64,000 nucleotides of DNA from IMG/VR virus record IMGVR_UViG_3300046000_004279, positions 32,001 to 96,000 of that record. One strand, given 5' to 3'. Source of the stretch: a virus. Shown piece after piece: positions 8,699 to 22,120 of this stretch. The stretch's first letter is position 1; every line of letters starts with the position of its first letter. A program made the position numbers and the translations under genes. The notes below the pieces were generated by a model. It saw nothing but the letters and a program-made list of their open reading frames with translations. It did no database searches and was not told the DNA's origin.

Positions 8699-9284
8699 AA
8701 CTGCTCATGTGATTGGAAATGGTGATAGCGCTTCAAGGTATAATCCCGCTAAAGGGTTCAAGATTACTTGTAACCTTCCACCATTCGCTGTAGAGAATGT
8801 TTATGCTAGCTGCATAGTCGATTTCAAGATGATGAATGCAATCAAAGAAGGTAGCGTAATCGTCCCAGGAGAATGGGTACTTGGTGCAAGACCTAAGAAA
8901 TTTATGGAGTTAAATCCTCAGTTTAATTTGAAGTATGCCAATCAAGTAAAAGAATACTATGATGTACTACCAAAGTATGCTGGTAACTATACAAACTTCA
9001 ACTGTGGTCACATGGCTGTTCACTATTCGGCAAACAAACTGAAGTGTGATGAGATCCACATGTATGGGTTCGATTCGATCTTTGACTTCAATCTTCGTAG
9101 TTCTAGTGACCTATACCTTGTAAGCGATAGAGAAGCAAACAACAGTCTCAGACTTTCCAACAACTGGCGTCCTATCTGGCAAGATATGTTCAAAGAGTTT
9201 CCCAACACTAAGTTTGTCCTTCATCATAAACACAATCAAATCAAGTTTCCTGTTGGAAAAAATGTTGAGATCGTTACAAATTAG
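8691..9284 (+). CDS. Sialyltransferase/Maf-like glycosyltransferase
   Basis: AHVIGNGDS, NCGHMA, EIHMYGFD. Confidence 0.55.
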   Translation: MTRTAHVIGNGDSASRYNPAKGFKITCNLPPFAVENVYASCIVDFKMMNAIKEGSVIVPGEWVLGARPKKFMELNPQFNLKYANQVKEYYDVLPKYAGNYTNFNCGHMAVHYSANKLKCDEIHMYGFDSIFDFNLRSSSDLYLVSDREANNSLRLSNNWRPIWQDMFKEFPNTKFVLHHKHNQIKFPVGKNVEIVTN

Positions 9285-9287
9285 GGC

Positions 9288-9315
9288 TTGACTTTTCCGA
9301 CAAACACTGTATAAT
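9288..9315 (+). promoter_or_regulatory. Sigma70-type early promoter
   Basis: TTGACT-N16-TATAAT. Confidence 0.7.
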
Positions 9316-9346
9316 AAAGCTGTGATTGTTAACGAGGGTCAATAAC

Positions 9347-9736
9347 ATGATCTACACGGTTGAAGGCGGAACCAAAGCTCAGCGTAAGGTTGTCGATTCG
9401 GCAATGTCTTATGTAGTGCATATACTTAAAATCCCAAATAAAGTTCATGTTGAAATTGTTCTTGGAAAGTTTATCTCTCACGGGGTGCGAGAAGATAGCA
9501 AGAACAGCTTTGAAATTGAAATTTGCAAAGATGTGAATGATGCAGAGATCGCTTACACAGTATTCCACGAGATGAAGCATGTTGAACAACTAGCTAGTGG
9601 ACGATTGCGCCATCAGGGATTTATTACGTTTTGGGAAGGTAAAGACATGCCTCTTACTGAGTACCACCAGCGCCCTTGGGAAATTGAAGCATTTAAATTT
9701 GAGAAAAATGCCGATTCTATCTTGACATTTGTTTAG
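9347..9736 (+). CDS. Zincin-like metallopeptidase
   Basis: HEMKHVEQ (HExxH) and PWEIEA. Confidence 0.75.
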   Translation: MIYTVEGGTKAQRKVVDSAMSYVVHILKIPNKVHVEIVLGKFISHGVREDSKNSFEIEICKDVNDAEIAYTVFHEMKHVEQLASGRLRHQGFITFWEGKDMPLTEYHQRPWEIEAFKFEKNADSILTFV

Positions 9737-9750
9737 AGATGTACTATATT
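9722..9750 (+). promoter_or_regulatory. Sigma70-type early promoter
   Basis: TTGACA-N17-TATATT. Confidence 0.75.
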
Positions 9751-9777
9751 AATAGTATGAACAAAGGAGAGATCACA

Positions 9778-9960
9778 ATGAACGGCTTTGACTATCAATC
9801 TGCCACTGAAGTGGCGATTCGTCTTGCTGGTGTTGCTCGTCGTGCCATCCTGTTTGGTCAAAGTCGCGAACGGATCATTGAAGAGATCTTGTTCTTGTCA
9901 GAAGACTACGCTAAGGTCGCTGCACAAATTGAAGTTCACATGGAAAAGGAAGCTGCATAA
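9778..9960 (+). CDS. Hypothetical protein
   Basis: AAGGAGA RBS, ATG 9778. Confidence 0.65.
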   Translation: MNGFDYQSATEVAIRLAGVARRAILFGQSRERIIEEILFLSEDYAKVAAQIEVHMEKEAA

Positions 9961-10142
9961 TGGATAATGTAATGCGTGACGAAGTTGCTCGGTTGTATCC
10001 AGCAAATGTATCAAGTGACTTTGAGAACAATGTTCGCGGTGAGCTCATTGATTGGATTTTGCTTGCACCTACACCAATCAAGTTGACTGGTATGGACATG
10101 AAAGATGTAATTAAAATGTTTTGGAACGAAAGGCTAAACTGA
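9960..10142 (+). CDS. Hypothetical protein
   Basis: Coupled TAATG start. Confidence 0.6.
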   Translation: MDNVMRDEVARLYPANVSSDFENNVRGELIDWILLAPTPIKLTGMDMKDVIKMFWNERLN

Positions 10143-10336
10143 TGGCTGATAGAAATGTAAGTGTTCAAGTAGGTCCTAACTTCTTAGGTCTCTTGACTAT
10201 CGTGTTCATTACCCTTAAACTGACTGGATACATTGCATGGTCGTGGTGGTGGGTTCTTTCGCCGCTGTGGCTGGGTTTTGTTGTAGCCATTACCATATTC
10301 CTCATCATAGCAATTATTGCAGGATTGTTCAAATGA
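10142..10336 (+). CDS. Small membrane protein
   Basis: GLLTIVFITLKLTGYIAWSWWWVLSPLW, a common phage membrane motif. Confidence 0.75.
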   Translation: MADRNVSVQVGPNFLGLLTIVFITLKLTGYIAWSWWWVLSPLWLGFVVAITIFLIIAIIAGLFK

Positions 10337-10710
10337 AAACTCTCGTAGCTATCGCACTACTGTTTGCTACATCTGCTTCCGCAGATACTGTTCGTGCAAC
10401 TATCAAAGACCATTATGAATGGCAAGATGTTAACATACCAATTACGCAGACTTATTGTAAGCAGAAGTCTGGTGGTCAAGGTGCTCTCGAAGGTATGATC
10501 ATTGGTGGTCTACTTGGTAAAGGGATCACTGGTGATGACGAAGGTGCTATTGGTGGTGCAGTTATCGGTGGTATAATCGGTGCTGATAAAGCTGGTCGTA
10601 AGTGTTGGGACGAGACTACATATTACACTGAGACAACTCAAGTGTATGCGTATAGCACGATCACTTTCACTCAAGATGGTCAAACATACACCGTGGACTT
10701 TTATAAATAA
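10333..10710 (+). CDS. Exported glycine-zipper protein
   Basis: Signal peptide MKTLVAIALLFATSASA; GMIIGGLLG...GAVIGGIIG. Confidence 0.75.
   Translation: MKTLVAIALLFATSASADTVRATIKDHYEWQDVNIPITQTYCKQKSGGQGALEGMIIGGLLGKGITGDDEGAIGGAVIGGIIGADKAGRKCWDETTYYTETTQVYAYSTITFTQDGQTYTVDFYK
10702..10709 (+). promoter_or_regulatory. T4-type late promoter
   Basis: TATAAATA immediately before the first tRNA. Confidence 0.65.
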
Positions 10711-10716
10711 GACATT

Positions 10717-10793
10717 GCTTCCGTAGCACAACTGGATAGTGCAAGAGATTTCTACTCTCTAGGTTGTGGGTTCGAGTCCTACCGGAAGCACCA
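10717..10793 (+). tRNA. tRNA-Arg(TCT)
   Basis: Cloverleaf GCTTCCG/CGGAAGC, loop TT-TCT-AC, encoded CCA. Confidence 0.92.
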
Positions 10794-10798
10794 ACATT

Positions 10799-10874
10799 GC
10801 CCATGTAGGCCAAAGGTAGAGTCAGGAGACTTAAAATCTTCACAGTGTCGGTTCGAGTCCGACCATGGGCACCA
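10799..10874 (+). tRNA. tRNA-Leu(TAA), short variable loop
   Basis: GCCCATG/CATGGGC, CT-TAA-AA, CCA. Confidence 0.9.
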
Positions 10875-10892
10875 ATCTTCTAAGGGGTTTAA

Positions 10893-11048
10893 ATGAGTAG
10901 CACAGAGTACGCCGAACTTGCAGGATTGACTATCGCGTTGAGTCGTTTAAGTCTCACCGCTGAAATACATAGAGATAGAGAGTGGGCTTTTGTTACTACT
11001 TGGATGACAGAACGCATCAATAATTTAAACAACAAAAAGAGACCATAA
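10893..11048 (+). CDS. Hypothetical protein (51 aa)
   Basis: AAGGGG RBS; MSSTEYAELAGL... Confidence 0.5.
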   Translation: MSSTEYAELAGLTIALSRLSLTAEIHRDREWAFVTTWMTERINNLNNKKRP

Positions 11049-11221
11049 TGTTTTACGTAAAAGAACACGGATTCTACTATGAAAAAAAGCACGGACCATA
11101 CAGCACGTTGAAGGAAGCTATGGCTAACAAGCCGCCTGACAAGACATTTGGGCGCGAAGAAGCCTGTGTGGTATTTACGATTGAATCTACTGAAGGCACG
11201 GTTCAACTGCTAAACGAATAA
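11048..11221 (+). CDS. Hypothetical protein (57 aa)
   Basis: Coupled TAATG; MFYVKEHGFYYEKKHGPY... Confidence 0.5.
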   Translation: MFYVKEHGFYYEKKHGPYSTLKEAMANKPPDKTFGREEACVVFTIESTEGTVQLLNE

Positions 11222-11222
11222 T

Positions 11223-11313
11223 GGAAGTGGGCGTTAGACGCAAGAGGGACTTATAAACCCTTCAGCAGTAGATGACTGTTCTCGACTGGGAGCGTAACCC
11301 AGCACTTCTACCA
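11223..11313 (+). tRNA. Atypical tRNA with TAT (Ile) anticodon, long variable arm and non-canonical T loop
   Basis: GGAAGTG/CACTTCT-A-CCA, CT-TAT-AA loop, T arm CTGGG-AGCGTAA-CCCAG. Confidence 0.7.
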
Positions 11314-11314
11314 T

Positions 11315-11390
11315 GATCCTATAGCTCAGTGGTTAGAGCTGGGCGCTCATAACGCCTAGGTCCGAGGTTCGAATCCTCGTGGGATCACCA
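11315..11390 (+). tRNA. tRNA-Ile2(CAT), lysidine type; Met less likely
   Basis: GATCCTA/TGGGATC with C4-G69 and C5-G68; CT-CAT-AA; CCA. Confidence 0.8.
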
Positions 11391-11399
11391 TTAAAAATG

Positions 11400-11407
11400 T
11401 ATAAATA
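11400..11407 (+). promoter_or_regulatory. T4-type late promoter
   Basis: TATAAATA. Confidence 0.7.
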
Positions 11408-11427
11408 TATCAAAAATGAGATATCAA

Positions 11428-12483
11428 ATGTTACGTTTTAAAAAAGTCTTTATGGAAAGTGGTTTAAATTCAAAAGCGGGTAACCCTGAGAATTTTGATT
11501 TACACAGTAAAAAATACGACACTGAAGGTGATCGACATACTCAAAAGTATATTGCGCCTTACTTGCCTGGCAAAATTTCTCATGCGCAAGGCACACACAG
11601 AGTAAATGGGGATGTTTCTTCAGATATTCCAAAAGGTTCTAATGTAACAATTCATGGCCATTCAATTGTTAACAACAGGCATCATGTAACTATTTCTGCA
11701 GTTGGAAGTAATAAAAAAGTTACAGTAGCTACAAGCAAACTGAACAAACCCACAGGTTCTACTACCATTGAAAATGAAGGTCATAAGTATGAGAAGTCGA
11801 CATTTGATAGATTTAAAAGTCATGGATTAATTCCTGATGGATATAGTCCAGCTGGATCCACTGCTGGTACGGATGTTCCTATCATAAACAAAAGACAAAA
11901 AACTCACCACCAAGGTCGAATTGTTGCCGATGACAAAGCATTGTTATCAGGCGAAGTTAAAAAAGATACTACAGCAGCATTTGGACAGATAACTGTTAGA
12001 CATGATCCTCAAAAGGGCGGATGGCATATTCCCGATAATAACAGAGGAAAAAGACCCAGCTATGCATCCGAAGTTGAAAAAGCTGGTTTAATAGACCACT
12101 TAAACAAAACCGCCAGTGATCCTACTAAAACGACAAAAACTGCTTCTGGTCGAGTTAAAACTGAAAGAATTACACATCCAGATCTTAAACCCGCAGAATC
12201 ATATTTGACTGATCACCATGTTGACGTGTTACACGTGGGCGGCGGTCATGGTACGTATAGTGTCGGTGAGAAAGATGTTACTGACCACGGTCTACCTAGG
12301 CTATCTGGTAAAGGATTATGGACAATTCGTCAAAAACAAACAGGTGCGAATGCACATAATACTAGAACTATCATGTTCCAGCCACATGGCAAAGCTGGAC
12401 TAAATAATAGTCATATTAATCTTGATGATGATTCGCATATAGAATCTTTCAAGAAAACCTTGGGTCACTCTACTTCGTCATAA
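11428..12483 (+). CDS. Hypothetical late protein; possible capsid-targeted PD-(D/E)xK nuclease
   Basis: MLRFKKVFME start; GHKYEK...GTD...GEVK...FGQ. Confidence 0.55.
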   Translation: MLRFKKVFMESGLNSKAGNPENFDLHSKKYDTEGDRHTQKYIAPYLPGKISHAQGTHRVNGDVSSDIPKGSNVTIHGHSIVNNRHHVTISAVGSNKKVTVATSKLNKPTGSTTIENEGHKYEKSTFDRFKSHGLIPDGYSPAGSTAGTDVPIINKRQKTHHQGRIVADDKALLSGEVKKDTTAAFGQITVRHDPQKGGWHIPDNNRGKRPSYASEVEKAGLIDHLNKTASDPTKTTKTASGRVKTERITHPDLKPAESYLTDHHVDVLHVGGGHGTYSVGEKDVTDHGLPRLSGKGLWTIRQKQTGANAHNTRTIMFQPHGKAGLNNSHINLDDDSHIESFKKTLGHSTSS

Positions 12484-12610
12484 CAATCTATAAAACAGGA
12501 TATTCAAATGGAACCTTTAATAGAAAAGACTTAAGATTGTTCTTGCATCCGCATTTTCATTAAAAACTTCGTTGGATGTTAAAAAGTTTTCATGGAGCGT
12601 AAAAAAACGC

Positions 12611-12640
12611 TTGACTTACAATAACAAAGTACTATATAAT
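12611..12640 (+). promoter_or_regulatory. Sigma70-type promoter of the leader/tRNA operon
   Basis: A-tract, TTGACT-N18-TATAAT. Confidence 0.7.
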
Positions 12641-12670
12641 AGAAGTACGAACAAAGGAACTCTATTGCAA

Positions 12671-12757
12671 ATGACTTCGCTGCATAAACAAAATCAATCC
12701 TGGTTTATGACCCCGCTCTGCGGCGAGTATATTCGCATGTGTGGAGGCTCTATGTAA
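12671..12757 (+). CDS. Putative attenuator leader peptide MTSLHKQNQSWFMTPLCGEYIRMCGGSM
   Basis: AAAGGA RBS, 28 codons; the last codons overlap the antiterminator arm. Confidence 0.65.
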   Translation: MTSLHKQNQSWFMTPLCGEYIRMCGGSM

Positions 12758-12783
12758 CGTATATCAAAGATATACCTTATCAA

Positions 12784-12819
12784 AGAGCCCTCCCAGATGA
12801 AAATCTTGGAGGGTTTTTT
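12784..12819 (+). terminator. Intrinsic terminator (attenuator) just upstream of tRNA-Cys
   Basis: AGAGCCCTCC-C-AGA-TGAAAA-TCT-T-GGAGGG-TTTTTT. Confidence 0.8.
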
Positions 12820-12824
12820 AATAC

Positions 12825-12902
12825 GGTGTGGTGCTCGAGTGGCCCAAGGGAACGGATTGCAAATCCGTAAAGTCGTGAGTTCGAATCTCACCCACACCTC
12901 CA
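12825..12902 (+). tRNA. tRNA-Cys(GCA)
   Basis: GGTGTGG/CCACACC, TT-GCA-AA, U73, CCA. Confidence 0.92.
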
Positions 12903-12904
12903 AT

Positions 12905-12978
12905 GTTGGTGTAGCTCAATGGTAGAGCTGCGGTGGTCAGCACCGTGCGTGAGAGTTCGATTCTCTCCACCTTCGCCA
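12905..12978 (+). tRNA. tRNA-Trp duplicate with altered anticodon loop (GG-TCA-GC)
   Basis: Identical to 13057-13130 except position 26 and 5 loop bases. Confidence 0.6.
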
Positions 12979-12982
12979 ATTC

Positions 12983-13054
12983 GGTGTGGCAGCTTGGTGC
13001 TGACTTGGGTCTCATAAGCCCGAAGAGAAAGTTCGATTCTTTCCCACACCACCA
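12983..13054 (+). tRNA. tRNA-Met(CAT), atypical D arm
   Basis: GGTGTGG/CCACACC-A-CCA, CT-CAT-AA, GAAAG-TTCGATT-CTTTC. Confidence 0.75.
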
Positions 13055-13056
13055 AT

Positions 13057-13130
13057 GTTGGTGTAGCTCAATGGTAGAGCGGCGGTCTCCAAAACCGTGC
13101 GTGAGAGTTCGATTCTCTCCACCTTCGCCA
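13057..13130 (+). tRNA. tRNA-Trp(CCA)
   Basis: GCGGT-CT-CCA-AA-ACCGT, G73, CCA; two U.U pairs in the acceptor stem. Confidence 0.88.
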
Positions 13131-13139
13131 AAATAACTG

Positions 13140-13168
13140 TTGACATTTGTGTAGAAAAGGTCTATATT
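13140..13168 (+). promoter_or_regulatory. Sigma70-type promoter
   Basis: AAATAACTG-TTGACA-N17-TATATT. Confidence 0.8.
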
Positions 13169-13206
13169 AAGTTAACAGGGGGAAATTAATTCGAATCAAT
13201 CTCTCT

Positions 13207-13218
13207 TGCTCTTTCAAA
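13207..13218 (+). promoter_or_regulatory. boxA-like antitermination site
   Basis: TGCTCTTTCAAA ~40 nt after the promoter (rrn boxA is TGCTCTTTAACA). Confidence 0.6.
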
Positions 13219-13266
13219 CTAACTAGAAAATGTCCTAGCGTAAGCGATGATGGACTGGAAACAGAT

Positions 13267-13384
13267 AACTCTGTTTTCATTGGGGTGGTGCTTGGTGCTC
13301 GCTTAGTCTCTTGCAGGAGACGGTGGCTAGCTGCAACTAGTGAGCAAGGTTCGATTCCTTGGCCACCTCATTGAAAACAGAGTT
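13267..13384 (+). ncRNA. Unassigned tRNA-like RNA enclosed in a 13-bp stalk
   Basis: AACTCTGTTTTCA/TGAAAACAGAGTT enclosing TGGGGTGGT/GCCACCTCA and T arm CAAGG-TTCGATT-CCTTG. Confidence 0.65.
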
Positions 13385-13386
13385 TT

Positions 13387-13461
13387 TGGGGGATAGCATA
13401 GTGGTTTTGCAGCAGACTTTGAATCTGTTGATCGTAGGTTCGAATCCTACTCCCCCAACCA
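13387..13461 (+). tRNA. tRNA-Gln(TTG)
   Basis: TGGGGGA/TCCCCCA, CT-TTG-AA, CCA. Confidence 0.9.
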
Positions 13462-13465
13462 ATAT

Positions 13466-13540
13466 GTCTTGGTAGCTCATTGGTAGAGCGAAGGTCTGAA
13501 AAACCTTGCGTAGGGAGTTCGATTCTCCCCCTTGGCACCA
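13466..13540 (+). tRNA. tRNA-Phe(GAA)
   Basis: AAGGT-CT-GAA-AA-ACCTT, CCA; two U.U pairs in the acceptor stem. Confidence 0.88.
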
Positions 13541-13560
13541 TATAACATAAGGAATATACA

Positions 13561-13794
13561 ATGAAGATTGGTGATAAAGTTATCCATACTAAGCAATGGA
13601 ATCAATATAAGGGTTGGGTTGGGACTATTGTGTCGCTTAGTCCATTAATTGAAGGATTTGTTTTTGTTAAGTGGGATACACGTATTGATCCTGATGGTAA
13701 TGTCTTTAAAGATTCTTTAGAATCGGATGGTATGCTTCAACACGTTCTTGAGTTAACACTATACCAACCTGTGTCAGATCCAGCTGCACATTAA
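13561..13794 (+). CDS. Hypothetical protein (SH3/KOW-like)
   Basis: TAAGGA RBS; MKIGDKV...GTIV...VKWD. Confidence 0.65.
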   Translation: MKIGDKVIHTKQWNQYKGWVGTIVSLSPLIEGFVFVKWDTRIDPDGNVFKDSLESDGMLQHVLELTLYQPVSDPAAH

Positions 13795-13815
13795 AAGAAT
13801 TTCTGGCTGAATTTT

Positions 13816-13890
13816 GGTCCTATAGCTCAGTGGTAGAGCAAAGAGCTGATAACTCTTAGGTCAGGTGTTCAATTCACCTTAGGACTACCA
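13816..13890 (+). tRNA. tRNA-Ile(GAT)
   Basis: GGTCCTA/TAGGACT, CT-GAT-AA, CCA. Confidence 0.92.
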
Positions 13891-13927
13891 AAGTCAAACC
13901 TAGTTGATCTCGAAAGTCGCTAGGTCT

Positions 13928-13995
13928 GCTCCTACAAGTGGTTATGCGGTTGTTCGAGCAACTGCATGTGGGATCGTTCCCCACTAGGAGTAACA
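13928..13995 (+). ncRNA. D-armless tRNA-like RNA
   Basis: GCTCCTA/TAGGAGT acceptor, CAAGTGGTT linker, 10-bp stem, T arm GTGGG-ATCGTTC-CCCAC; ends in ACA. Confidence 0.55.
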
Positions 13996-14000
13996 AGTTT

Positions 14001-14085
14001 GGGAGTGACGCATCAAGGTGATGCAGCAGACTGTAAATCTGTGGCGGAAGCGCAACGTTGGGTTCGATTCCCTTCACTCCCACCA
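14001..14085 (+). tRNA. tRNA-Tyr(GTA)
   Basis: GGGAGTG/CACTCCC, CT-GTA-AA, long V arm, CCA. Confidence 0.9.
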
Positions 14086-14092
14086 ACACCAT

Positions 14093-14167
14093 GCAGCATT
14101 TGATTTCTGGTGAGATCGCTATCCTTTCAAGATAGAGAGACGGGATCGTAACCCGTATGCTGTACCA
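14093..14167 (+). tRNA. tRNA-Glu(TTC), ATCGTAA T loop
   Basis: GCAGCAT/ATGCTGT, CT-TTC-AA, CCA. Confidence 0.82.
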
Positions 14168-14170
14168 ATT

Positions 14171-14247
14171 GCCTCCATAGCTCAGCTGGATAGAGTACTG
14201 GTCTTCGAAACCATGGGTCGGGAGTTCGAATCTCTCTGGGGGCTCCA
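14171..14247 (+). tRNA. tRNA-Arg(TCG)
   Basis: GCCTCCA/TGGGGGC, CT-TCG-AA, A20, CCA. Confidence 0.9.
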
Positions 14248-14254
14248 TAACAAT

Positions 14255-14329
14255 GCTGGATAAGGTGTAACGGTTGCACTCCTGATTGTGAGTCAGGCAG
14301 ATGTGGTTCGACTCCACTATCCAGTACCA
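14255..14329 (+). tRNA. tRNA-His(GTG), 8/4 fold, no G-1, A73
   Basis: GCTGGATA/TATCCAGT 8-bp acceptor, GTGG/CCAC 4-bp T stem, TT-GTG-AG. Confidence 0.85.
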
Positions 14330-14334
14330 AGAAT

Positions 14335-14409
14335 GCGGGTGTAACTCAGGGGTAGAGTACTTCGTTGCCAACGAAGCTGTCGTGGGTTCAAATCCCACCA
14401 CCCGCTCCA
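14335..14409 (+). tRNA. tRNA-Gly(GCC)
   Basis: GCGGGTG/CACCCGC, TT-GCC-AA, U73, CCA. Confidence 0.92.
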
Positions 14410-14418
14410 ATATATTAT

Positions 14419-14426
14419 TATAAATA
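14419..14426 (+). promoter_or_regulatory. T4-type late promoter
   Basis: TATAAATA. Confidence 0.7.
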
Positions 14427-14451
14427 TCTTAACATTAGTTAGGAGAATAGT

Positions 14452-14889
14452 ATGAAGAAGTTGTTATTGGTAGCGTTACTGCTACTGCCATCCATTGCTT
14501 TCGCTGAGAAGAAACCAGAAGGCGTAGTACACGATCTAAAGATCATTCGCGTGATTGATGGTGACACTGTAGAGTTTGAAGCACCATTCCTTATTGATCC
14601 ATTGCCTAAGAAGCTATCAATTCGTGTATGGGGTGTTGACACTCCTGAAAAGTCTTTCCGCGCTAAGTGCGAGAAAGAAGCAGCAATGGGTGCAGAAGCT
14701 TCCAAGTTCACAAAGGATCTTCTTGCCAATGCCAAGACCACACAGATCTCAATCTACGAATGGGATAAGTATGGTGGAAGAGTTCTTGGAGATGTTATCA
14801 TTGACGGTAACAGCTTAACGAAGATGTTGCTAGACAAAGGTTATGCTCGTGAATACTATGGTGATGCAAAACAATCTTGGTGTGAGTGA
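14452..14889 (+). CDS. Thermonuclease (SNase family) with signal peptide
   Basis: RVIDGDT, IRVWGVDTPE, DKYGGRVLG; N-terminal signal peptide. Confidence 0.9.
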   Translation: MKKLLLVALLLLPSIAFAEKKPEGVVHDLKIIRVIDGDTVEFEAPFLIDPLPKKLSIRVWGVDTPEKSFRAKCEKEAAMGAEASKFTKDLLANAKTTQISIYEWDKYGGRVLGDVIIDGNSLTKMLLDKGYAREYYGDAKQSWCE

Positions 14890-14895
14890 AAACAG

Positions 14896-15204
14896 ATGCT
14901 TTTAGATATTACACCGAACGCCAAAGAATATCTCACTAAGATGACTGAAGATAACGGTAAGCGATATGTTTACCTTAATGTCAAGGGCGGTGGGTGCAGT
15001 GGGTTCAAATATGAATGGAACTTTACTGATGAAACCGACAAAGGTGCGTTGGTACAAGACATTCTTGTCTTGGATGCTATGGCTGAAATGTTTGTATTTG
15101 GTTGTACTGTGGATTACATTCGCGAGTTAGGCGGTAACTATCTCACAGTATTGAATCCTAACGCAAAAGCAAAATGTGGCTGCGGCGAAAGCTTTGGCAT
15201 ATGA
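14896..15204 (+). CDS. iscA: A-type Fe-S cluster carrier (IscA/HesB)
   Basis: GGGCSGFKY, NPNAKAKCGCGESF. Confidence 0.92.
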   Translation: MLLDITPNAKEYLTKMTEDNGKRYVYLNVKGGGCSGFKYEWNFTDETDKGALVQDILVLDAMAEMFVFGCTVDYIRELGGNYLTVLNPNAKAKCGCGESFGI

Positions 15205-15220
15205 TTAGTGAAAATAACTG

Positions 15221-15249
15221 TTGACATTTGGTTCAGAATAATGTATAAG
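15221..15249 (+). promoter_or_regulatory. Sigma70-type promoter
   Basis: AAATAACTG-TTGACA-N17-TATAAG. Confidence 0.75.
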
Positions 15250-15270
15250 TATACATGTAAGACGAATCAA

Positions 15271-15282
15271 TGCTCTTTGAAA
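15271..15282 (+). promoter_or_regulatory. boxA-like antitermination site
   Basis: TGCTCTTTGAAA ~20 nt after the promoter. Confidence 0.65.
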
Positions 15283-15298
15283 ATTTAGAAACAGAAGT

Positions 15299-15393
15299 GA
15301 TTCTGTTTTCACATGCATCCTGTGAATGAGGGTAGGCCACCCAACACTTTGCGGACTACGCAGAAATGCTGGGGTGCATGTGAAAACAGAGTT
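15299..15393 (+). ncRNA. Unassigned RNA: ~23-bp stalk topped by a three-way junction
   Basis: TTCTGTTTTCACATGCATCC/GGGTGCATGTGAAAACAGAG; inner GGGT/ACCC and TTTGCG/CGCAGA hairpins. Confidence 0.65.
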
Positions 15394-15394
15394 T

Positions 15395-15471
15395 TGCGGG
15401 GTAGACTGGAGGTGGTTCCAGCACGGTCTCATAAGCCGAATACGTAGGTTCGATTCCTGCCCCCGCCACCA
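15395..15471 (+). tRNA. tRNA-Met(CAT), initiator-like
   Basis: TGCGGGG/CCCCGCC with 1:72 mismatch, CT-CAT-AA, CCA. Confidence 0.8.
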
Positions 15472-15477
15472 AAATAC

Positions 15478-15567
15478 GGAGAGCTGGGCGAGTGGTTTAT
15501 GCCTGCAGTCTTGAAAACTGCCGAACGGTGAAACGTTCCGTGAGTTCGAATCTCACGCTCTCCGCCA
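15478..15567 (+). tRNA. tRNA-Ser(TGA)
   Basis: GGAGAGC/GCTCTCC, CT-TGA-AA, long V arm, G73. Confidence 0.92.
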
Positions 15568-15570
15568 GAA

Positions 15571-15762
15571 TTCGATGGACGGCGTAGTTACACGGTCTTA
15601 GACGCCTCTCGTAGAAGCGCAACATCTAAGACGAGGTCGGGAGAGATGCTTCCCATATAGTCATACCCGCCCGTTTGGCGGTCCACTATATGGGGTATAA
15701 AGCTGATCATAACCTTGGGAACCCGTGCGCTGAAAAGGGGATGCATACCCGTTTCCATCGAA
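15571..15762 (+). ncRNA. Unassigned multibranched RNA (~190 nt)
   Basis: TTCGATGGA/TCCATCGAA closing stem; GTCTTAGA/TCTAAGAC; CCCATATAGT/ACTATATGGG. Confidence 0.55.
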
Positions 15763-15763
15763 C

Positions 15764-15875
15764 TTTATACGGAGTCAGTAGTGTGTCGGCTCGTTTTGAG
15801 GTTACAGATCTTATACCGTTGAAGGATAAGCACACCACTACTTCTGCGAAAGGCTTAGATCCCCTTTCGTATGAA
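15764..15875 (+). ncRNA. Unassigned structured RNA (~110 nt)
   Basis: TTATACGGAG/TTTCGTATGA closing stem; AGTAGTG/CACTACT; CTTAT/ATAAG. Confidence 0.45.
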
Positions 15876-15878
15876 TTC

Positions 15879-15951
15879 GGGGCGGGTAATGGGTTACGGG
15901 TGATCCTTGCAAGATTGCTGTCGTTGGGTTCGATTCCCAATTGCTCCACCA
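15879..15951 (+). tRNA. tRNA-Ala(TGC), reduced D arm
   Basis: G3.U70, CT-TGC-AA, TTGGG-TTCGATT-CCCAA, A73, CCA. Confidence 0.8.
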
Positions 15952-15955
15952 AATT

Positions 15956-16029
15956 GGCCCATTGATGAAGTGGTATCATACCGGATTGTCTATCCGAGGT
16001 TGCGAGTTCGATTCTCGCATGGGTCGCCA
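15956..16029 (+). tRNA. tRNA-Asp(GTC)
   Basis: GGCCCAT/ATGGGTC, TT-GTC-TA, G73, CCA. Confidence 0.88.
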
Positions 16030-16220
16030 AACTTGGGGCTAGCCGCCCAAGACCAGTGTCAGAGAATTTCTTGTTACAACGCTGACACTTTAATAAACTC
16101 TGGTATACAAGCGTGCCTGTCGACGATAATAGATGGGGGTTTTAGTTATATTCCACCCTTAAGAAATATGACGGGTAGTGATGCAACCTAGAAGGGGTGG
16201 CTCCCAGCATCGTAAATTAC

Positions 16221-16294
16221 GGTCTGTTAGTTCAATGGTAGAACATCGTCTTTACACGGCGACTACGCGGGTTCGATTCCCCCACAGACTACCA
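16221..16294 (+). tRNA. tRNA-Val(TAC)
   Basis: GGTCTGT/ACAGACT, TT-TAC-AC, CCA. Confidence 0.9.
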
Positions 16295-16300
16295 GATAAT

Positions 16301-16376
16301 GCCTTGGTGGTGAAATGGTAAACACACCGGTCTTAGAAACCGCAAGCTGAGAGTTCGAGTCTCTCCTGAGGCACCA
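16301..16376 (+). tRNA. tRNA-Leu(TAG), short variable loop
   Basis: GCCTTGG/CTGAGGC, CT-TAG-AA, CCA. Confidence 0.88.
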
Positions 16377-16395
16377 ATAAATTTAGGAATAGATA

Positions 16396-17529
16396 ATGAA
16401 GTCCAATGTGATACAAGATGAAATCACTGCTGAAATCAGCAAGATTTTTGACTATAAGTTTGACGGGACAACTGAGTTTGTTCCACCGTCAATTGGAATG
16501 ATTGATAAAGAGACAACACTGAAAGACTTCAACATTGGCTTGATAGTCGGACCATCGGGATCTGGCAAGAGTACGATGTTAAAGGATTTCGGTGTTGAAG
16601 TCGATCCTCAATGGGATCCTGATCTCTGCGTTGCATCTCATTTTGAAAATGTGAAACAAGCACAAGAACGTTTAGGTGCAGTTGGGTTCAATAGTATTCC
16701 AAGTTGGCTTCGCCCTTATCATGTTTTGTCTAACGGTGAACAGTTTCGCGCTCGTTTGGCTCGTCAACTAGATAACAATGTAGTGGTGGATGAGTTCACT
16801 TCTGTCATTGATCGTGATGTTGCTAAGAGTTGTTCAAATGCAATTCATCGTTACATCCATGCAAATGGTTTGAAGAACATCGTCTTTTCATCCTGTCATT
16901 ATGACATTATTGAGTGGTTACGTCCAGATTGGGTATTTGATACTCAAACTGGTAAATTGACCACAAGGAGGTTTGAAAGGCCAGCCATCGTTTTGGAAAT
17001 CCTACCTTGTTCCACCAAAGCTTGGTCATTGTTCAGCGACCATCACTATCTTGACGGGGACATCAATAAAAGTTCACGATCTTGGATCGTCACGTGGAAC
17101 AACCGACCTGTCGGCTTTCTTTCAAGTTTAGCGATGCCTAGTGGTAGTCTTAAGAACGCTTGGAGAGGTCACAGAACTGTCGTTCTACCTGAGTTTCAAG
17201 GTTTGGGTATTGGTGCTAGAATGACCGAAGCTTTAGGTGAGATGCACATCAGAGAAGGCAAAAGGTTCTTCACAAAGACCGCACATCCGCGCTTAGGTGA
17301 GTATCGTAATGCGTCTGACCTTTGGAGATCGACAAGTAAAAACGGGATCTTGAGAAACGACTACAAACACATATCAACTGATGGTTTACCAAACCCTCGT
17401 GGCGCTGGTTACAGTCGTAAGTTTACAAAAGAATATCTGGCTAAACACGCTGACAGAGTGTGTTACAGTCACGAATACATAGGAAATACAACGGATCGTG
17501 GGCTGGATGGTAAAGCAGCAGTTTGCTAA
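16396..17529 (+). CDS. ABC-type ATPase fused to a GNAT acetyltransferase
   Basis: GPSGSGKST, LSNGEQFR, VVVDEF; HHYL and RTVVLPEFQGLGIG acetyl-CoA motif. Confidence 0.88.
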   Translation: MKSNVIQDEITAEISKIFDYKFDGTTEFVPPSIGMIDKETTLKDFNIGLIVGPSGSGKSTMLKDFGVEVDPQWDPDLCVASHFENVKQAQERLGAVGFNSIPSWLRPYHVLSNGEQFRARLARQLDNNVVVDEFTSVIDRDVAKSCSNAIHRYIHANGLKNIVFSSCHYDIIEWLRPDWVFDTQTGKLTTRRFERPAIVLEILPCSTKAWSLFSDHHYLDGDINKSSRSWIVTWNNRPVGFLSSLAMPSGSLKNAWRGHRTVVLPEFQGLGIGARMTEALGEMHIREGKRFFTKTAHPRLGEYRNASDLWRSTSKNGILRNDYKHISTDGLPNPRGAGYSRKFTKEYLAKHADRVCYSHEYIGNTTDRGLDGKAAVC

Positions 17530-17580
17530 ACTGTACTACCTGTAAGGGTAGAGTGGGTTCGATTCCCACACGATCCGCCA
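17493..17580 (+). tRNA. tRNA-Ser(GCT)
   Basis: GGATCGT/ACGATCC, TT-GCT-AA, long V arm, G73, CCA; overlaps the upstream CDS. Confidence 0.9.
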
Positions 17581-17588
17581 TATAAATA
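17581..17588 (+). promoter_or_regulatory. T4-type late promoter
   Basis: TATAAATA, followed by a possible 50-aa ORF at 17594-17746. Confidence 0.55.
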
Positions 17589-17707
17589 ATCTCATGTTCA
17601 AAAAGATTTGGTCCATTCTCTTGCCATTGACTGTCATAGTTAACTTTGGTTTAGCTATCAGTAACTTAATATCCACTAGATCAAACCATTTTATGTTGAT
17701 CGACCTA

Positions 17708-17736
17708 TTGACTTTACATCAATCAAGCACTATATT
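17708..17736 (+). promoter_or_regulatory. Sigma70-type early promoter
   Basis: TTGACT-N17-TATATT. Confidence 0.7.
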
Positions 17737-17756
17737 AAGTAAGTAGAGACAGAGAG

Positions 17757-18287
17757 ATGACCATGACAAACTTCAATTCTTTTGTGACAAACTTTTCGGA
17801 GAGTGCATCGATTGAAAAATCTATGCAAGAAAAGATCTCCAAGGCATTTGCCGAATTGAATGCTAAGTTGATCAAATCTGATCAAGAGTGGGCCAAGAAA
17901 AAGATCGAAGGGTTCCAAGACCACATGAAAAAATGGGATGCAGATCACACCAAATACGCCGATTACAAACTTCGTGGTCCTGAAGTTATCAAATATTGGG
18001 GCAGTGAAGCGATGATGAAACTGATTGCGAGTCGTGGTCTTCAAGGCGGTCTTGATAACATGATGAAAAACACTCATGCTCTTATCGCAAAAAGAGACAA
18101 TCAGATTGTCGCGGCTCTACGTAAGAATAAGATCGACGGCATTCCCGATTTTGAACTGAAACACAATAGTGATGGTTACGAAGGCAGTTTCAAAGTTGGT
18201 GATCACAATGTTAACATCCGCACAATCGTTGCTGGTGGGTACAACATTCAAAGAATGCACATGCGAACGTTAATAAAAGTACAGTAA
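17757..18287 (+). CDS. Hypothetical early protein
   Basis: 176-aa ORF; C-terminal TIVAGGYNIQRMH.R motif. Confidence 0.7.
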   Translation: MTMTNFNSFVTNFSESASIEKSMQEKISKAFAELNAKLIKSDQEWAKKKIEGFQDHMKKWDADHTKYADYKLRGPEVIKYWGSEAMMKLIASRGLQGGLDNMMKNTHALIAKRDNQIVAALRKNKIDGIPDFELKHNSDGYEGSFKVGDHNVNIRTIVAGGYNIQRMHMRTLIKVQ

Positions 18288-18301
18288 AGCTAAAATAACT
18301 C

Positions 18302-18330
18302 TTGACTCTTGCTTAGAGATGCACTATATT
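18302..18330 (+). promoter_or_regulatory. Sigma70-type early promoter
   Basis: AAAATAACTC-TTGACT-N17-TATATT; near copy of the 9722 promoter. Confidence 0.75.
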
Positions 18331-18355
18331 GATACTGTAGTAAAGAGGAAAACAC

Positions 18356-18766
18356 ATGTACACGTTCGACGAATCAATTGTTTCTGATCTGCACAAAGAC
18401 ACTTACGGCTTCCGCCCTGACAGTGCTTTCTGGTCTAACTGGAATGTCTCCTCAGATGCTGGCAAACAGTACATCTGGGATTGTCTGCTCGAAGCTTTCG
18501 CCCACACCATTGAGATTAATGCTAACGAGGATATCGCTGCGATCAATGCTTTCGAGCTTGAGATTGCAAACACGATTGATCTTGGTGCTACTTCGCGTGA
18601 AGTCGCTATTCGTTGGATCATTGAGTCGATGGGTCTGACTGAGACCGATTTGGTGTACGGTGGCAGTTATGTCTGTTTCTTGAAGAAACTACCGTATTCA
18701 ATGGCTCCGTTGTTTGATAACGCGATTCGTGATCTTGAAAGTAACTTCATCAAAGAGGATGCATAA
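18356..18766 (+). CDS. Hypothetical early protein
   Basis: SDLHKDTYGFRP motif; GAGGA RBS. Confidence 0.72.
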   Translation: MYTFDESIVSDLHKDTYGFRPDSAFWSNWNVSSDAGKQYIWDCLLEAFAHTIEINANEDIAAINAFELEIANTIDLGATSREVAIRWIIESMGLTETDLVYGGSYVCFLKKLPYSMAPLFDNAIRDLESNFIKEDA

Positions 18767-18984
18767 TGTTGGAAACTATCTCTGCGGGTGAACTGTGTAT
18801 GGGCATTCTTGAATCAGAATTCCATCGCCCGTTGATCAATGGTAAAGCGAATCGTGAGAACATTGAAGATGCAATCACGATTGGCATGATGGAAAAGAAA
18901 CTTGGGTATGTGTCGCAAGAGACTGTTGACATTGCAATTGCTTTGGTCAACGATTTGCTAGCCCTACATAATGTAAAAGAATAA
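18766..18984 (+). CDS. Hypothetical protein
   Basis: Coupled TAATG. Confidence 0.6.
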   Translation: MLETISAGELCMGILESEFHRPLINGKANRENIEDAITIGMMEKKLGYVSQETVDIAIALVNDLLALHNVKE

Positions 18985-18988
18985 CCGT

Positions 18989-19064
18989 TTCCAGTTAGCT
19001 CAGTTGGTAGAGCATCTGACTGTTAATCAGAGGGTCGCTGGTTCGAGCCCAGCACTGGGAGCCA
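18989..19064 (+). tRNA. tRNA-Asn(GTT)
   Basis: TTCCAGT/ACTGGGA, CT-GTT-AA, G73, CCA. Confidence 0.93.
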
Positions 19065-19071
19065 AATATAT

Positions 19072-19146
19072 CAGGGTGTAGCTCAGTGGTAGAGTGCTTC
19101 ACTTGGAATGAAGAAGTCGCAAGTTCAATCCTTGTCACCCTGACCA
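19072..19146 (+). tRNA. tRNA-Pro(TGG)
   Basis: CAGGGTG/CACCCTG, CT-TGG-AA, CCA. Confidence 0.92.
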
Positions 19147-19168
19147 AATATACGTCAACACTATTGGT

Positions 19169-20293
19169 ATGAATAAAATGATTTTGAATCCAAACGATGC
19201 TTTGTATGCATATGGTAAAATAAACGAAGCGTATGGTTCTATCAATCGTATTGACGATTATTTTAGAATGAAGAAACTTGAACGGATCAAACACCTTCCT
19301 ACGCCCTTGTTTGGGTTTTCGATGGAAGATGAGATGTTTCAATCATACGATATGTCTCCTGATGATATGAATTTCAAAGTTGTTCAACTGAAAAATCAAA
19401 CCTTCAATACTTTGTTGGAGATGACGGCTTCATTCACTTATGAAGACGCCCCTGGTAAAGAACTAAAGCTTGCAATTCAAGAAACCACAACTGGTAAGTA
19501 TGTTGGGTTTATCAAGTTAGGATCTCCTCTAATCAACTCCAAACCAAGAAACGATTACTTAGGTGATGTTCCTGAGTTCTCTCGTTTCAACAAACATGCA
19601 ATTATGGGGTTTATCATTGTTCCTGTTCAACCGTTTGGGTATAACTATCTCGGCGGTAAACTACTCAGCCTTATCTGTGCAAGTCACGAGATACGTGAGA
19701 TGATAAACAAAAAATACAATTGTAATATCTGTTTGTTTGAAACTACTTCACTGTATGGCAATATCAAAGGAACATCTCAGTATGATGGTCTCAAGCCCTA
19801 CTTGCGGTATCTTGGCGATACACAGTCTAAGTTTCTGTTAACTCTTCCTGATTCTATATACCATGATCTATACAAGTGGTTCAAAGATAAAAACAATGGT
19901 GAAGAACTGATTCACAAAGGTGCGTCTAGCAGAAAACTAAAAATTCAGACTAAGATGATTTCAATCATTAAACACTCTTTGAAAGAACATCATCCAGATA
20001 AGTATACAGAGTTTGTGGAGTTTATCAAAAATCGTGAAGAAGTCACAACTCAAAAAAGGTTCTACATGTCTGACTATGGGTTCTCAAACGTAAAAGATGT
20101 TTTGACTGGAAAGACTGATACATTGGTCCCGAATCCAGAGAACTATGACAAGTTCTATCTTGATAATCTTATAAAGTGGTGGAAGAACAAAGCTACAAAC
20201 AGATTTAACCGATTGAAAGAAACGGATTGTTTGCGTACCAATCTTGAGGTTTGGAACGAGGATACGATCAACACGATTGATATTATCAGATAA
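19169..20293 (+). CDS. DUF4338 (DruA-like) domain protein
   Basis: GFIKLGSP.IN.KPRN, IVPVQPFGYNYLGGKLL, ETTSLYG. Confidence 0.65.
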   Translation: MNKMILNPNDALYAYGKINEAYGSINRIDDYFRMKKLERIKHLPTPLFGFSMEDEMFQSYDMSPDDMNFKVVQLKNQTFNTLLEMTASFTYEDAPGKELKLAIQETTTGKYVGFIKLGSPLINSKPRNDYLGDVPEFSRFNKHAIMGFIIVPVQPFGYNYLGGKLLSLICASHEIREMINKKYNCNICLFETTSLYGNIKGTSQYDGLKPYLRYLGDTQSKFLLTLPDSIYHDLYKWFKDKNNGEELIHKGASSRKLKIQTKMISIIKHSLKEHHPDKYTEFVEFIKNREEVTTQKRFYMSDYGFSNVKDVLTGKTDTLVPNPENYDKFYLDNLIKWWKNKATNRFNRLKETDCLRTNLEVWNEDTINTIDIIR

Positions 20294-20314
20294 ACTATAC
20301 TATATAATCATATT

Positions 20315-20389
20315 GCGGGAGTAGCTCAGTGGTAGAGCGCTATCCTTCCAAGTTAGATGTCGTGGGTTCGACCCCCATCTCCCGCTCCA
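20315..20389 (+). tRNA. tRNA-Gly(TCC)
   Basis: GCGGGAG/CTCCCGC, CT-TCC-AA, U73, CCA. Confidence 0.92.
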
Positions 20390-20394
20390 ATTTC

Positions 20395-20470
20395 GCTTCC
20401 TAAGCATTGCTGGCGATGCAACGGTTTTGTAGTCCGAAGATAGAGTGTTCGATTCACTCAGGAAGCACCA
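20395..20470 (+). tRNA. tRNA-Thr(TGT)
   Basis: GCTTCCT/AGGAAGC, TT-TGT-AG, CCA. Confidence 0.82.
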
Positions 20471-20491
20471 TTTTACATTATAGGAGTTACA

Positions 20492-20854
20492 ATGGCATAC
20501 TGGGGTTATCACGCGATCTTCGATTGCGCTGCTTGTGATATTGGTCTTATCACTAGCGAGAAAAATGTTTACAATTTCATTAAAGAACTTGTCCCTGCGA
20601 TTGATATGGTAGCCTACGGTGAGCCAATGATCAAACACTTTGCTACTCACGCTATCGACAAAGCTGGTATCAGCTTCTGTCAGATGATTGAGACTAGCAG
20701 CATTACTGGGCACCTTGTTGATGCAAACGGTGATGCATATATTGACATCTTCTCTTGTAAGCCAGTTGATATTGGCATTGCTCAAGATGTTATCACTAAG
20801 TATTTCAAGCCATCTAAAGTTCGAGTTAATTTCCTCACTCGCAGTGCTGGATAA
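20492..20854 (+). CDS. speD: S-adenosylmethionine decarboxylase proenzyme
   Basis: WGYH..FD, IETSSITGH cleavage region, YIDIFSCK. Confidence 0.85.
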   Translation: MAYWGYHAIFDCAACDIGLITSEKNVYNFIKELVPAIDMVAYGEPMIKHFATHAIDKAGISFCQMIETSSITGHLVDANGDAYIDIFSCKPVDIGIAQDVITKYFKPSKVRVNFLTRSAG

Positions 20855-20875
20855 TCATACAATTTAGTATTAACG

Positions 20876-20898
20876 CCCCGTAGCTTATGGCTACGGGG
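20876..20898 (+). terminator. Strong hairpin after speD
   Basis: CCCCGTAGC-TTATG-GCTACGGGG; short T tail; followed by late-like TATAAGTA (20910-20917). Confidence 0.5.
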
Positions 20899-20922
20899 TT
20901 GAACTCGTTTATAAGTAGCAGT

Positions 20923-21735
20923 ATGACAAGAACAACACCTTTACCATTCTATCGACCTGAAGATCCATTCTTCTTATATCATGATCTGTATCCAACAAAT
21001 CAGGTAAAGCTGTGGTTGGATATTTCAACACATTGCAATGCAAAATGCCCACAATGTCACAGAACAGATGCTAATGGATTAGGTAAATCCGATTGGTTAC
21101 CTGTTGTGCAGTGGTCTTTTGAACAATTCAAGTTTGCATTTCCTCCCAAGACTCTACAGATGTTCAAAGAGATTCAGATCTGCGGTACGTGGGGTGATCC
21201 TATGATGAACAAAGACATCTATGAGATCATGGAATACATTATGGATAACAGCCGAGGAATCCACGTACTGTTGAACACCAATGGCAGTATTCGTGACGAA
21301 GAGTGGTGGTGGAAGTTCGGCACAAAGGTCCGTAACCGTTGCACAGTGTTCTGGGCAATTGAGGGGATCACCAACGAACAACATGCAATGTATCGTCAGA
21401 ACACCGACCTTGATAAGGTTCTACGCAACATGGAATCGTTCTCTGCTGCTGGTGGCATAAGCGAAGTATTTACAGTTGTGTTTAAGCACAATGAGAAAGA
21501 TATGTACAACATCGCCAAGGTTAGCAAAGACCTCGGTGCAAGGCAGATCATGTTTGTTCAGTCAAATAGGTTCTACAGACATTCTAAGTTTGACTTTGTT
21601 GATGATCAAGGTGTTGAACAGTCACTATATAGAGCAGAACTACCACCCAACAAAGAGTTCTATTGGAAATCGTGGGATTTGAATAACCCTGTTGCTATGG
21701 AGATTATAAAGAATGAAGCCAGTCGAACGCAATAA
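20923..21735 (+). CDS. Radical SAM protein
   Basis: CNAKCPQC, CGTWGDP, NTNGS. Confidence 0.9.
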   Translation: MTRTTPLPFYRPEDPFFLYHDLYPTNQVKLWLDISTHCNAKCPQCHRTDANGLGKSDWLPVVQWSFEQFKFAFPPKTLQMFKEIQICGTWGDPMMNKDIYEIMEYIMDNSRGIHVLLNTNGSIRDEEWWWKFGTKVRNRCTVFWAIEGITNEQHAMYRQNTDLDKVLRNMESFSAAGGISEVFTVVFKHNEKDMYNIAKVSKDLGARQIMFVQSNRFYRHSKFDFVDDQGVEQSLYRAELPPNKEFYWKSWDLNNPVAMEIIKNEASRTQ

Positions 21736-22120
21736 GTGTGGGGTTGTTTGCGAATGGATGCAGACTGGTCGCATCTTAATTAATCCTGATGGGCAAGTGT
21801 TACCTTGCTGTTACCTAGCAAATGTGATGTACATGGTTAACAAGCTAGGCACACCCGAGCAGGTGTTGGCTAATAAGAACAATCTAACAGACCAGATTGG
21901 CCAACGCAACCTGATCCAAAAAGAGTTCTATGAAGAGCCAGTGTTGGTTGAGTATCTTGAGAACAAAGAAAAGTACAGCGTGTTTCACACACCATTCGAA
22001 GAAATCATTAATAGTGATTGGTTTACTAAAACATTACCACAATCTTGGGATGATTCTGATAGATTGGTATTACAGTGTGCACAACACTGTGGAACGGTAA
22101 AGCATCGTGGCAGAAAGTAA
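21713..22120 (+). CDS. Stand-alone SPASM/twitch Fe-S domain protein
   Basis: C...INPDGQVLPCC...C...C. Confidence 0.8.
   Translation: MKPVERNKCGVVCEWMQTGRILINPDGQVLPCCYLANVMYMVNKLGTPEQVLANKNNLTDQIGQRNLIQKEFYEEPVLVEYLENKEKYSVFHTPFEEIINSDWFTKTLPQSWDDSDRLVLQCAQHCGTVKHRGRK

Follow-up and report, generated by a model that had tools for sequence, protein, structure and literature searches.

The window, the 64,000-nt stretch of DNA analysed here, belongs to a 110.9-kb IMG/VR virus record from an uncultured phage and contains all of the tRNA genes of the record (25/25). The baseplate proteins of the record are T4-like, and the gp6-like protein has its best cultured match at 42.5% identity, with matches from Pelagibacter, Methylophilales and cyanobacterial T4-like phages coming next. 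Four of the tRNA genes, namely tRNA-Cys(GCA), a Trp-like tRNA with a UCA anticodon, tRNA-Met(CAT) and tRNA-Trp(CCA), form a block at 12825–13130 (ARAGORN and Rfam) that is preceded by a compact element at 12611–12824. The features of the element and of the block all lie on the + strand.

The element begins with a sigma-70-type promoter at 12611–12640 (TTGACT, 18 nt, TATAAT; 11/12 consensus matches), with its hexamers at 12611–12616 and 12635–12640. This promoter is the sole promoter-like site before the four tRNA genes and is conserved in the close relatives L190, L232 and L252. It is followed by a Shine-Dalgarno-like AAAGGA at 12653–12658, which is invariant in a five-sequence alignment, and by a leader ORF of 28 sense codons and a TAA stop at 12671–12757 (ATG at 12671, TAA at 12755–12757). 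Equivalent ORFs are present in most elements of the family described below; indels within the ORF among close relatives are multiples of three. The original prediction had assigned AAAGGA as the ribosome-binding site. The motif is indeed present, but it lies 12 nt 5' of the ATG, double the 6-nt mode of the long ORFs of this phage, so that initiation of the leader may be weak or may work differently. A spacing of about 12 nt between the AGGA core and the ATG (mode 12) recurs in many leader families (L149, L182, L136, L207, L248, L243 and others).

The last four codons of the leader contain the 5' strand of a predicted antiterminator (12740–12751), which comprises a GGAGG core at 12743–12747 and a CTCT extension; the sequence GGAGGCTCT is located at 12743–12751. 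Inside the antiterminator lies a hairpin of 7 bp with an AAA loop (12759–12775), one base away from the position implied by the original prediction. This inner hairpin, identified by folding and from relatives, is preserved with different sequences in L190, L232 and L252, and has counterparts with GCAA loops in L008 and L016. The intrinsic terminator at 12782–12819 consists of an A-rich 5' extension, CCCTCC (12788–12793), an AGAT/ATCT stem, a GAAA loop, GGAGGG (12808–12813) and a run of six T residues (12814–12819). A dedicated scan identified it as the sole strong hairpin-plus-T-run on the + strand between 8000 and 22000, while a generic terminator scan misses it owing to its 14-nt interrupted loop. 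The tRNA-Cys gene starts at 12825, 5 nt past the T run, with no promoter between them. Direct reading of the sequence confirmed every feature of the original prediction where it had been described, save for the one-base shift of the inner hairpin. The next promoter (TTGACA, 17 nt, TATATT; 11/12 consensus matches) is not encountered until 13140–13168, where it bounds the block, and the four tRNA genes at 12825–13130 are therefore reachable only via the terminator.

The UCA-anticodon gene (12905–12978), which ARAGORN calls SeC, is nearly a copy of tRNA-Trp(CCA) two genes on (13057–13130), and its product may be an opal-reading Trp-like tRNA. Beside this tRNA, it was noted that the leader stop is TAA and not TGA. 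The arrays of the related tRNA regions L007, L008, L010 and L011 include a tRNA with a CUA anticodon (called Pyl by ARAGORN), which would read amber. Just upstream of the element, an ORF of 355 residues (11416–12483) has no PHROG match. Its homologues on five viral contigs (44–76% identity) were tried as a guide and rejected; protein genes follow them, not tRNAs.

Alternative folds of the leader RNA

The minimum free-energy structure of nascent RNA ending at 12795–12806 is the proposed antiterminator around the inner hairpin (−22.2 kcal/mol), with 12740–12751 paired with 12784–12794. The terminator alone has an energy of −21.3 kcal/mol, and it is the terminator that appears in the fold of the full-length RNA. 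These mutually exclusive folds support the alternative pairing of the terminator 5' arm with the final codons of the leader that had been seen in the original prediction, and the fold of the region is more stable than 200/200 shuffled sequences (z = −4.75).

When a ribosome footprint is set on the stop codon by masked folding, the antiterminator is lost and the terminator remains; when the ribosome is masked at Cys17, the antiterminator still forms in the nascent RNA. The antiterminator also wins in the nascent RNA without a ribosome, and an untranslated leader is therefore predicted to read through; for the same reason, no superattenuation of the trp type is predicted. A clear anti-antiterminator or pause hairpin, comparable to the 1:2 helix of trp, did not emerge from the folds; in the full-length minimum free-energy structure the 5' UTR pairs with GUGGAG.

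The leader stop codon in the window lies 12 nt past the start of GGAGG and 30 nt from CCCTCC. In the family as a whole the stop is mostly 12–19 nt past GGAGG, and the distance from the stop to CCCTCC is 24–37 nt, mostly 27–32 nt. Given these distances, a terminating ribosome would cover GGAGG but not the terminator. With the stop codon in the A site, GGAGG is 4–11 nt before the P-site codon, and the CCUCC of the ribosomal anti-Shine-Dalgarno sequence has the same letters as the terminator arm. Because an SD-like core sits at this distance from the P-site codon, the anti-Shine-Dalgarno sequence of the ribosome may help to hold GGAGG. Positions 12743–12757 (GGAGG, 4 nt, AUG, UAA) also have the layout of a start–stop mini-ORF with its own Shine-Dalgarno sequence. 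This layout is common to the window, L009 and L252; other families end differently.

A family of related elements in IMG/VR

The first relatives of the element (L009, L008, L012 and L016) were fetched via a nuclease gene inside the tRNA region. All four combine a promoter with a short ORF that carries GGAGG close to its end, and continue with a small hairpin and a CCCTCC/GGAGGG/T-run terminator. A second scan of IMG/VR, in which GGAGG, CCCTCC and GGAGGG-T5 were demanded, produced 87 stretches containing 65 unique elements. An ATG-initiated ORF of 15–60 codons with its stop 6–24 nt past GGAGG is present in 54 of the 65, compared with 7.1 expected from shuffled flanks (P ~1e-41). Most of the elements precede tRNA arrays. 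The element in the window is one member of this conserved family.

As a control, IMG/VR was scanned for the CCCTCC...GGAGGG-T6 terminator alone, with the upstream region unconstrained; 108 terminators remained after dropping duplicates and sites with less than 300 nt downstream. tRNA genes are found within 1 kb downstream of 8/11 control terminators that have GGAGG 30–60 nt upstream versus 3/97 of those that do not, and at least one of these three is a variant of the same element.

Since the pattern used to collect the family demanded the antiterminator core, the core itself does not constitute independent evidence; such evidence comes only from the flanks of the antiterminator, from the leader ORF, from the tRNA context and from the match in codons. 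The flanks were assessed using one representative from each of 23 peptide families, pairing the GGAGG region with its own terminator arm or with those of the others. The mean energy is −17.5 kcal/mol for own duplexes versus −13.9 ± 0.5 kcal/mol for mismatched duplexes, and 0/100,000 permutations are as low. The antiterminator is present in the nascent minimum free-energy structure of 41/53 elements, and the terminator in the full-length structure of 50/53. In the five closest relatives, 85% of the antiterminator cells are paired, compared with 36–50% when the partner columns are slid, and four antiterminator pairs are changed on both sides, one of them in the stem proper; a C-G to U-A exchange occurs in L009. 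Covariation in this small set alone is not significant (52/500 shuffles reach four pairs). For the terminator, 98.7% of the cells are paired in the five relatives, and the changes are one-sided only. Across the 23 families, antiterminator flanks vary in step with the terminator arms of their own elements.

Sequences diverge greatly between families, whereas the geometry and the match to the tRNA genes are kept. This pattern bears on the possibility that the element works chiefly through the terminated RNA of ∼170 nt, or through its peptide, as a trans-acting product, with control of the tRNA genes being secondary. Trans action is known for attenuator RNAs and for leader peptides, as exemplified by the rnTrpL RNA and the peTrpL peptide of Sinorhizobium (PMC6614838, PMC7298713), and the leader RNA in the window is strongly structured. 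Such a product would be without a known target, and the element nearly always adjoins tRNA genes; this reading is accordingly the least probable of those considered, with only a slight chance of being correct.

When cultured phage records were searched directly at the DNA level with the element, only tRNA-Cys gave matches, and no cultured carrier of this sequence family was found; a search of the same records with the L012 leader and an exact-match search of IMG/VR with the terminator each gave no match. Some phage genomes carry at least two attenuators whose peptides belong to different families and which precede separate tRNA blocks (the contigs behind L208/L215, L165/L210, L224/L254 and L212, the second element of the last, L220, being equal to L214 in sequence).

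Leader codons and downstream tRNA genes

The leader in the window uses 17 of the 20 amino acids (all but Ala, Asp and Val) and 23 distinct codons, in agreement on recount with an earlier hand count. On the strength of this breadth the original prediction had proposed that the leader samples the general pool of charged tRNAs. The breadth is within what a random 28-mer with the composition of this phage would show (P=0.083), and the codons covered by any phage tRNA (19/27) are no more frequent than in ordinary phage ORFs (64%; P=0.31), so that this part of the prediction is not sustained. Cys, Trp and Met codons together account for 6/27 leader codons versus 4.2% in phage ORFs (P=0.0008). It is in these codons, which match the four tRNA genes next downstream, that the leader stands out; the original prediction had remarked upon the coincidence and so came halfway to this reading.

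Trp11 (12701), Met13 (12707) and Cys17 (12719), which span 12701–12721, lie 14, 12 and 8 codons before GGAGG and are assigned as the sensing codons from the codon excess and their position. Met23 and Cys24 would not be expected to antiterminate, being so near to GGAGG that a ribosome stalled on them would mask it. A match to one of the four gated tRNAs is found for 5/23 sensing codons, most leader codons having none, and the window instance taken alone rests on six codons. Against the wider set of tRNA genes downstream, the match in the window by itself is not significant (12/23, P=0.17, with other leaders as background). L232 has a near-identical leader before genes for Cys, Trp, Met, Gln, Pro, Lys, Lys, Asn, Phe, Ile and Glu tRNAs, with which it matches at 14/23 sensing codons (hand count). 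The leader of another relative, L252, contains no Trp codon, and no tRNA-Trp was detected within 1.25 kb downstream of it.

The match was also evaluated across the family. When leader codons upstream of GGAGG are compared with tRNAs within 0.7–2 kb for all elements, it lies above the permuted pairings by z = 7–8 at the amino-acid and codon levels alike; with one representative from each of 19 peptide families, it is 0.458 versus 0.287 ± 0.025 for permuted pairings (0/100,000 as high). Swapping the leaders of a single contig gives 11/22 and 16/22 for the own pairings and 5/22 and 3/22 for the crossed pairings. A second genome was treated likewise, using L212 and, as an identical copy of the other element of that genome, L214; here the own pairings give 11/23 and 13/22 and the crossed pairings 4/23 and 1/22. 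As the match persists inside single genomes, it cannot be accounted for by base composition. Contrasts within families, which are not independent of one another, show a residue and its matching tRNA gained or lost together in 66 cases versus 35 in the reverse direction.

The excess of matching codons depends on position: it peaks 7–12 codons before GGAGG (ratio 1.8–1.9), is weak at 1–3 codons (1.2) and is gone beyond 25 codons. The zone of 7–12 codons can be read as that in which a stalled ribosome would leave GGAGG, and with it the antiterminator, free. Individual leaders illustrate the correspondence. Codons 3–12 of L152 encode Tyr-Phe-Ile-Cys-Lys-Phe-Glu-Glu-Tyr-Met, and the array behind it contains Ile, Tyr, Phe, Glu, Lys, Lys, Met and Cys tRNAs; in L272, Ser, Tyr, Gly and Glu dominate the leader, which precedes Glu, Ser, Ser, Tyr, Glu and Tyr tRNAs (binomial P=1.5e-8, with other leaders as background). 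A similar likeness between leader and array is seen for L235 and L253. Across the family, leaders mirror the roster of the tRNAs encoded behind them; the original prediction is thus partly supported, as regards the attenuator but not as regards the sampling of a general pool.

A sensor of general translation capacity would need no codon specificity, with any slowing of the ribosome, or a shortage of free ribosomes at GGAGG and AUG-UAA, leading to readthrough. The use of 17 amino acids by the leader in the window and the start–stop layout shared with L009 and L252 would fit such a sensor, and the same switch would answer any stall. The chance-level breadth and phage-tRNA coverage noted above speak against it, as does the specificity of leaders for their own tRNA set, which holds family-wide and even within single genomes, and the start–stop layout is confined to the close relatives of the window. 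A general sensor is therefore considered unlikely.

Peptide motifs are kept within families, and the conserved residues are largely those that have matching tRNAs downstream. Conservation of the peptide could also reflect an ordinary small-protein gene driven by a promoter of its own and followed by a leaky, unregulated terminator, in which case the GGAGG match would be incidental and the tRNAs would be transcribed by constitutive readthrough; terminators of the same type are common after ordinary phage genes. Control terminators without GGAGG very seldom precede tRNA genes, however, the antiterminator flanks covary and the ORF ends at a fixed distance from GGAGG. Together with leader composition that tracks the tRNA set and the identity of the conserved residues, these observations make a small-protein gene very unlikely.

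Proposed mechanism and comparison with known systems

The element most probably governs phage tRNA genes as a ribosome-mediated leader-peptide transcription attenuator. The attenuator logic of the trp/his type that had been recognized in the original prediction is supported by the ORF geometry, the covariation of the flanks, the bistable fold (41–50 of 53 elements) and the tight link to tRNA arrays. Transcription would start from the promoter at 12611–12640, and the 28-codon leader would be translated while RNA polymerase proceeds. On emerging, GGAGGCUCU in the last codons of the leader would pair with AGAGCCCUCC in the terminator 5' arm before the 3' arm is made. A ribosome already at the stop codon would cover GGAGG, allowing the terminator to form and the transcript to end at about 12819. 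If charged tRNA is short, a ribosome delayed at the Trp, Met or Cys codons 8–14 codons upstream would leave GGAGG free; the antiterminator would then hold and the polymerase would read tRNA-Cys, the Trp-like tRNA, tRNA-Met and tRNA-Trp and then the blocks beyond. The arrangement would amount to negative feedback, with slow decoding of the roster codons causing the tRNAs to be made and fast decoding shutting them off.

A more elaborate version, offered tentatively and regarded as doubtful, is that each element acts as a demand meter for its own block. The leader would serve as a codon roster by which the phage detects the loss of particular host tRNAs, for example when anticodon nucleases of defence systems act or when host RNA decays in the course of infection, and replaces only those, and GGAGG would be an internal Shine-Dalgarno mimic held by the anti-Shine-Dalgarno sequence (CCUCC) of the terminating ribosome in competition with the RNA arm.

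Multivalent leaders are known from enterobacteria, such as those of thr (Thr and Ile codons) and ilvGMEDA (Ile, Leu and Val codons), in addition to trpL, hisL, pheL and leuL. The proposed attenuator resembles the thr and ilv leaders in having a short leader that is predicted to be translated and an intrinsic terminator whose 5' arm is also used by the antiterminator, with the ribosome position setting the fold and one leader able to sense several amino acids. It differs from the leaders of amino-acid operons in that it would regulate tRNA genes and not biosynthetic enzymes, in that the sensing codons form a roster of the downstream tRNAs and not a run of one codon, and in that the core of the antiterminator is an SD-like GGAGG. 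The Rfam families of the Trp, His, Thr, Leu and Phe leaders gave no match up to E=1 in 9000–22000, and Rfam identified no cis-regulatory family in the tRNA region, only tRNAs and chance-level matches.

The pheST operon of Escherichia coli, which encodes phenylalanyl-tRNA synthetase, is governed by a leader-peptide attenuator that senses Phe alone and regulates a protein gene. Both systems would place part of the translation machinery, rather than a biosynthetic pathway, under leader-peptide control; here, unlike in pheST, the tRNA being regulated would itself be the one whose supply is sensed. T-box riboswitches of Gram-positive bacteria bind uncharged tRNA directly without a ribosome and control synthetase and amino-acid genes. 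They share with the present element a terminator/antiterminator transcription attenuator that answers to tRNA status, but the conserved ORF and the codon roster point to the ribosome as the reader here, and the T-box model gave no match up to E=1 (Rfam, 9000–22000).

The long tRNA array of Anabaena (the trn operon) is reported to be silent unless translation is impaired (PMC8421152) and to be repressed by the protein TrcR (PMC10272220). Both systems would turn on spare tRNA genes under translation stress; the Anabaena operon is cellular and reportedly under a transcriptional repressor, whereas the present block is viral and would be controlled by an RNA switch coupled to a leader peptide. Published work on a leader-peptide attenuator that governs tRNA genes was not found in the literature searched, as in the original prediction, where no such control of a phage tRNA array was known; most subscription journals lay outside the search, so that this absence is not proof.

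The purpose of phage tRNA genes has been debated for decades. They have been proposed to provide codon compensation, to make up for a decaying host pool or to allow escape from defences that cleave tRNA, which phage tRNAs are known to counteract (PMC10264068, PMC11555353). Candidates for the physiological trigger of the switch would be decay of host tRNA, starvation, and anticodon nucleases or other tRNA-cleaving defences. If the proposed mechanism is correct, the phage measures the decoding speed of exactly those codons that its tRNAs serve and supplies tRNA on demand, and the debate could be put to the test by asking what kinds of stress open the switch. The trp/his mechanism would moreover gain a new class of targets, the RNA genes of the translation apparatus, and the element would provide a compact and programmable means of sensing how well individual tRNAs are supplied. 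With a sigma-70-type promoter and parts that span less than 220 nt, the element should be easy to test in reporters or defined cell-free systems.

A second conserved cassette lies past the gated block (window 13140–13281; L009:975–1100; L008:880–940; L016:8170–8195). It consists of a promoter and a ATCAATCT..GCTCTTT(C/G)A motif, which is boxA-like, with all of its parts ahead of an odd tRNA-like gene. The boxA-like GCTCTTT is absent from the element itself (12611–12824); a copy lies in the following cassette, near 13203. The cassettes of the window and L009 additionally contain a conserved stretch of about 34 nt that starts with TGTCCTAGCG. A GCTCTTTGACAATTTA motif is located directly past the attenuator terminator in L016 and about 40 nt past it in L008. 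At 13282–13370 in the window, ARAGORN calls a tRNA of undefined identity with a two-base anticodon, which is flanked by the complementary sequences AAACAGA and TCTGTTTT.
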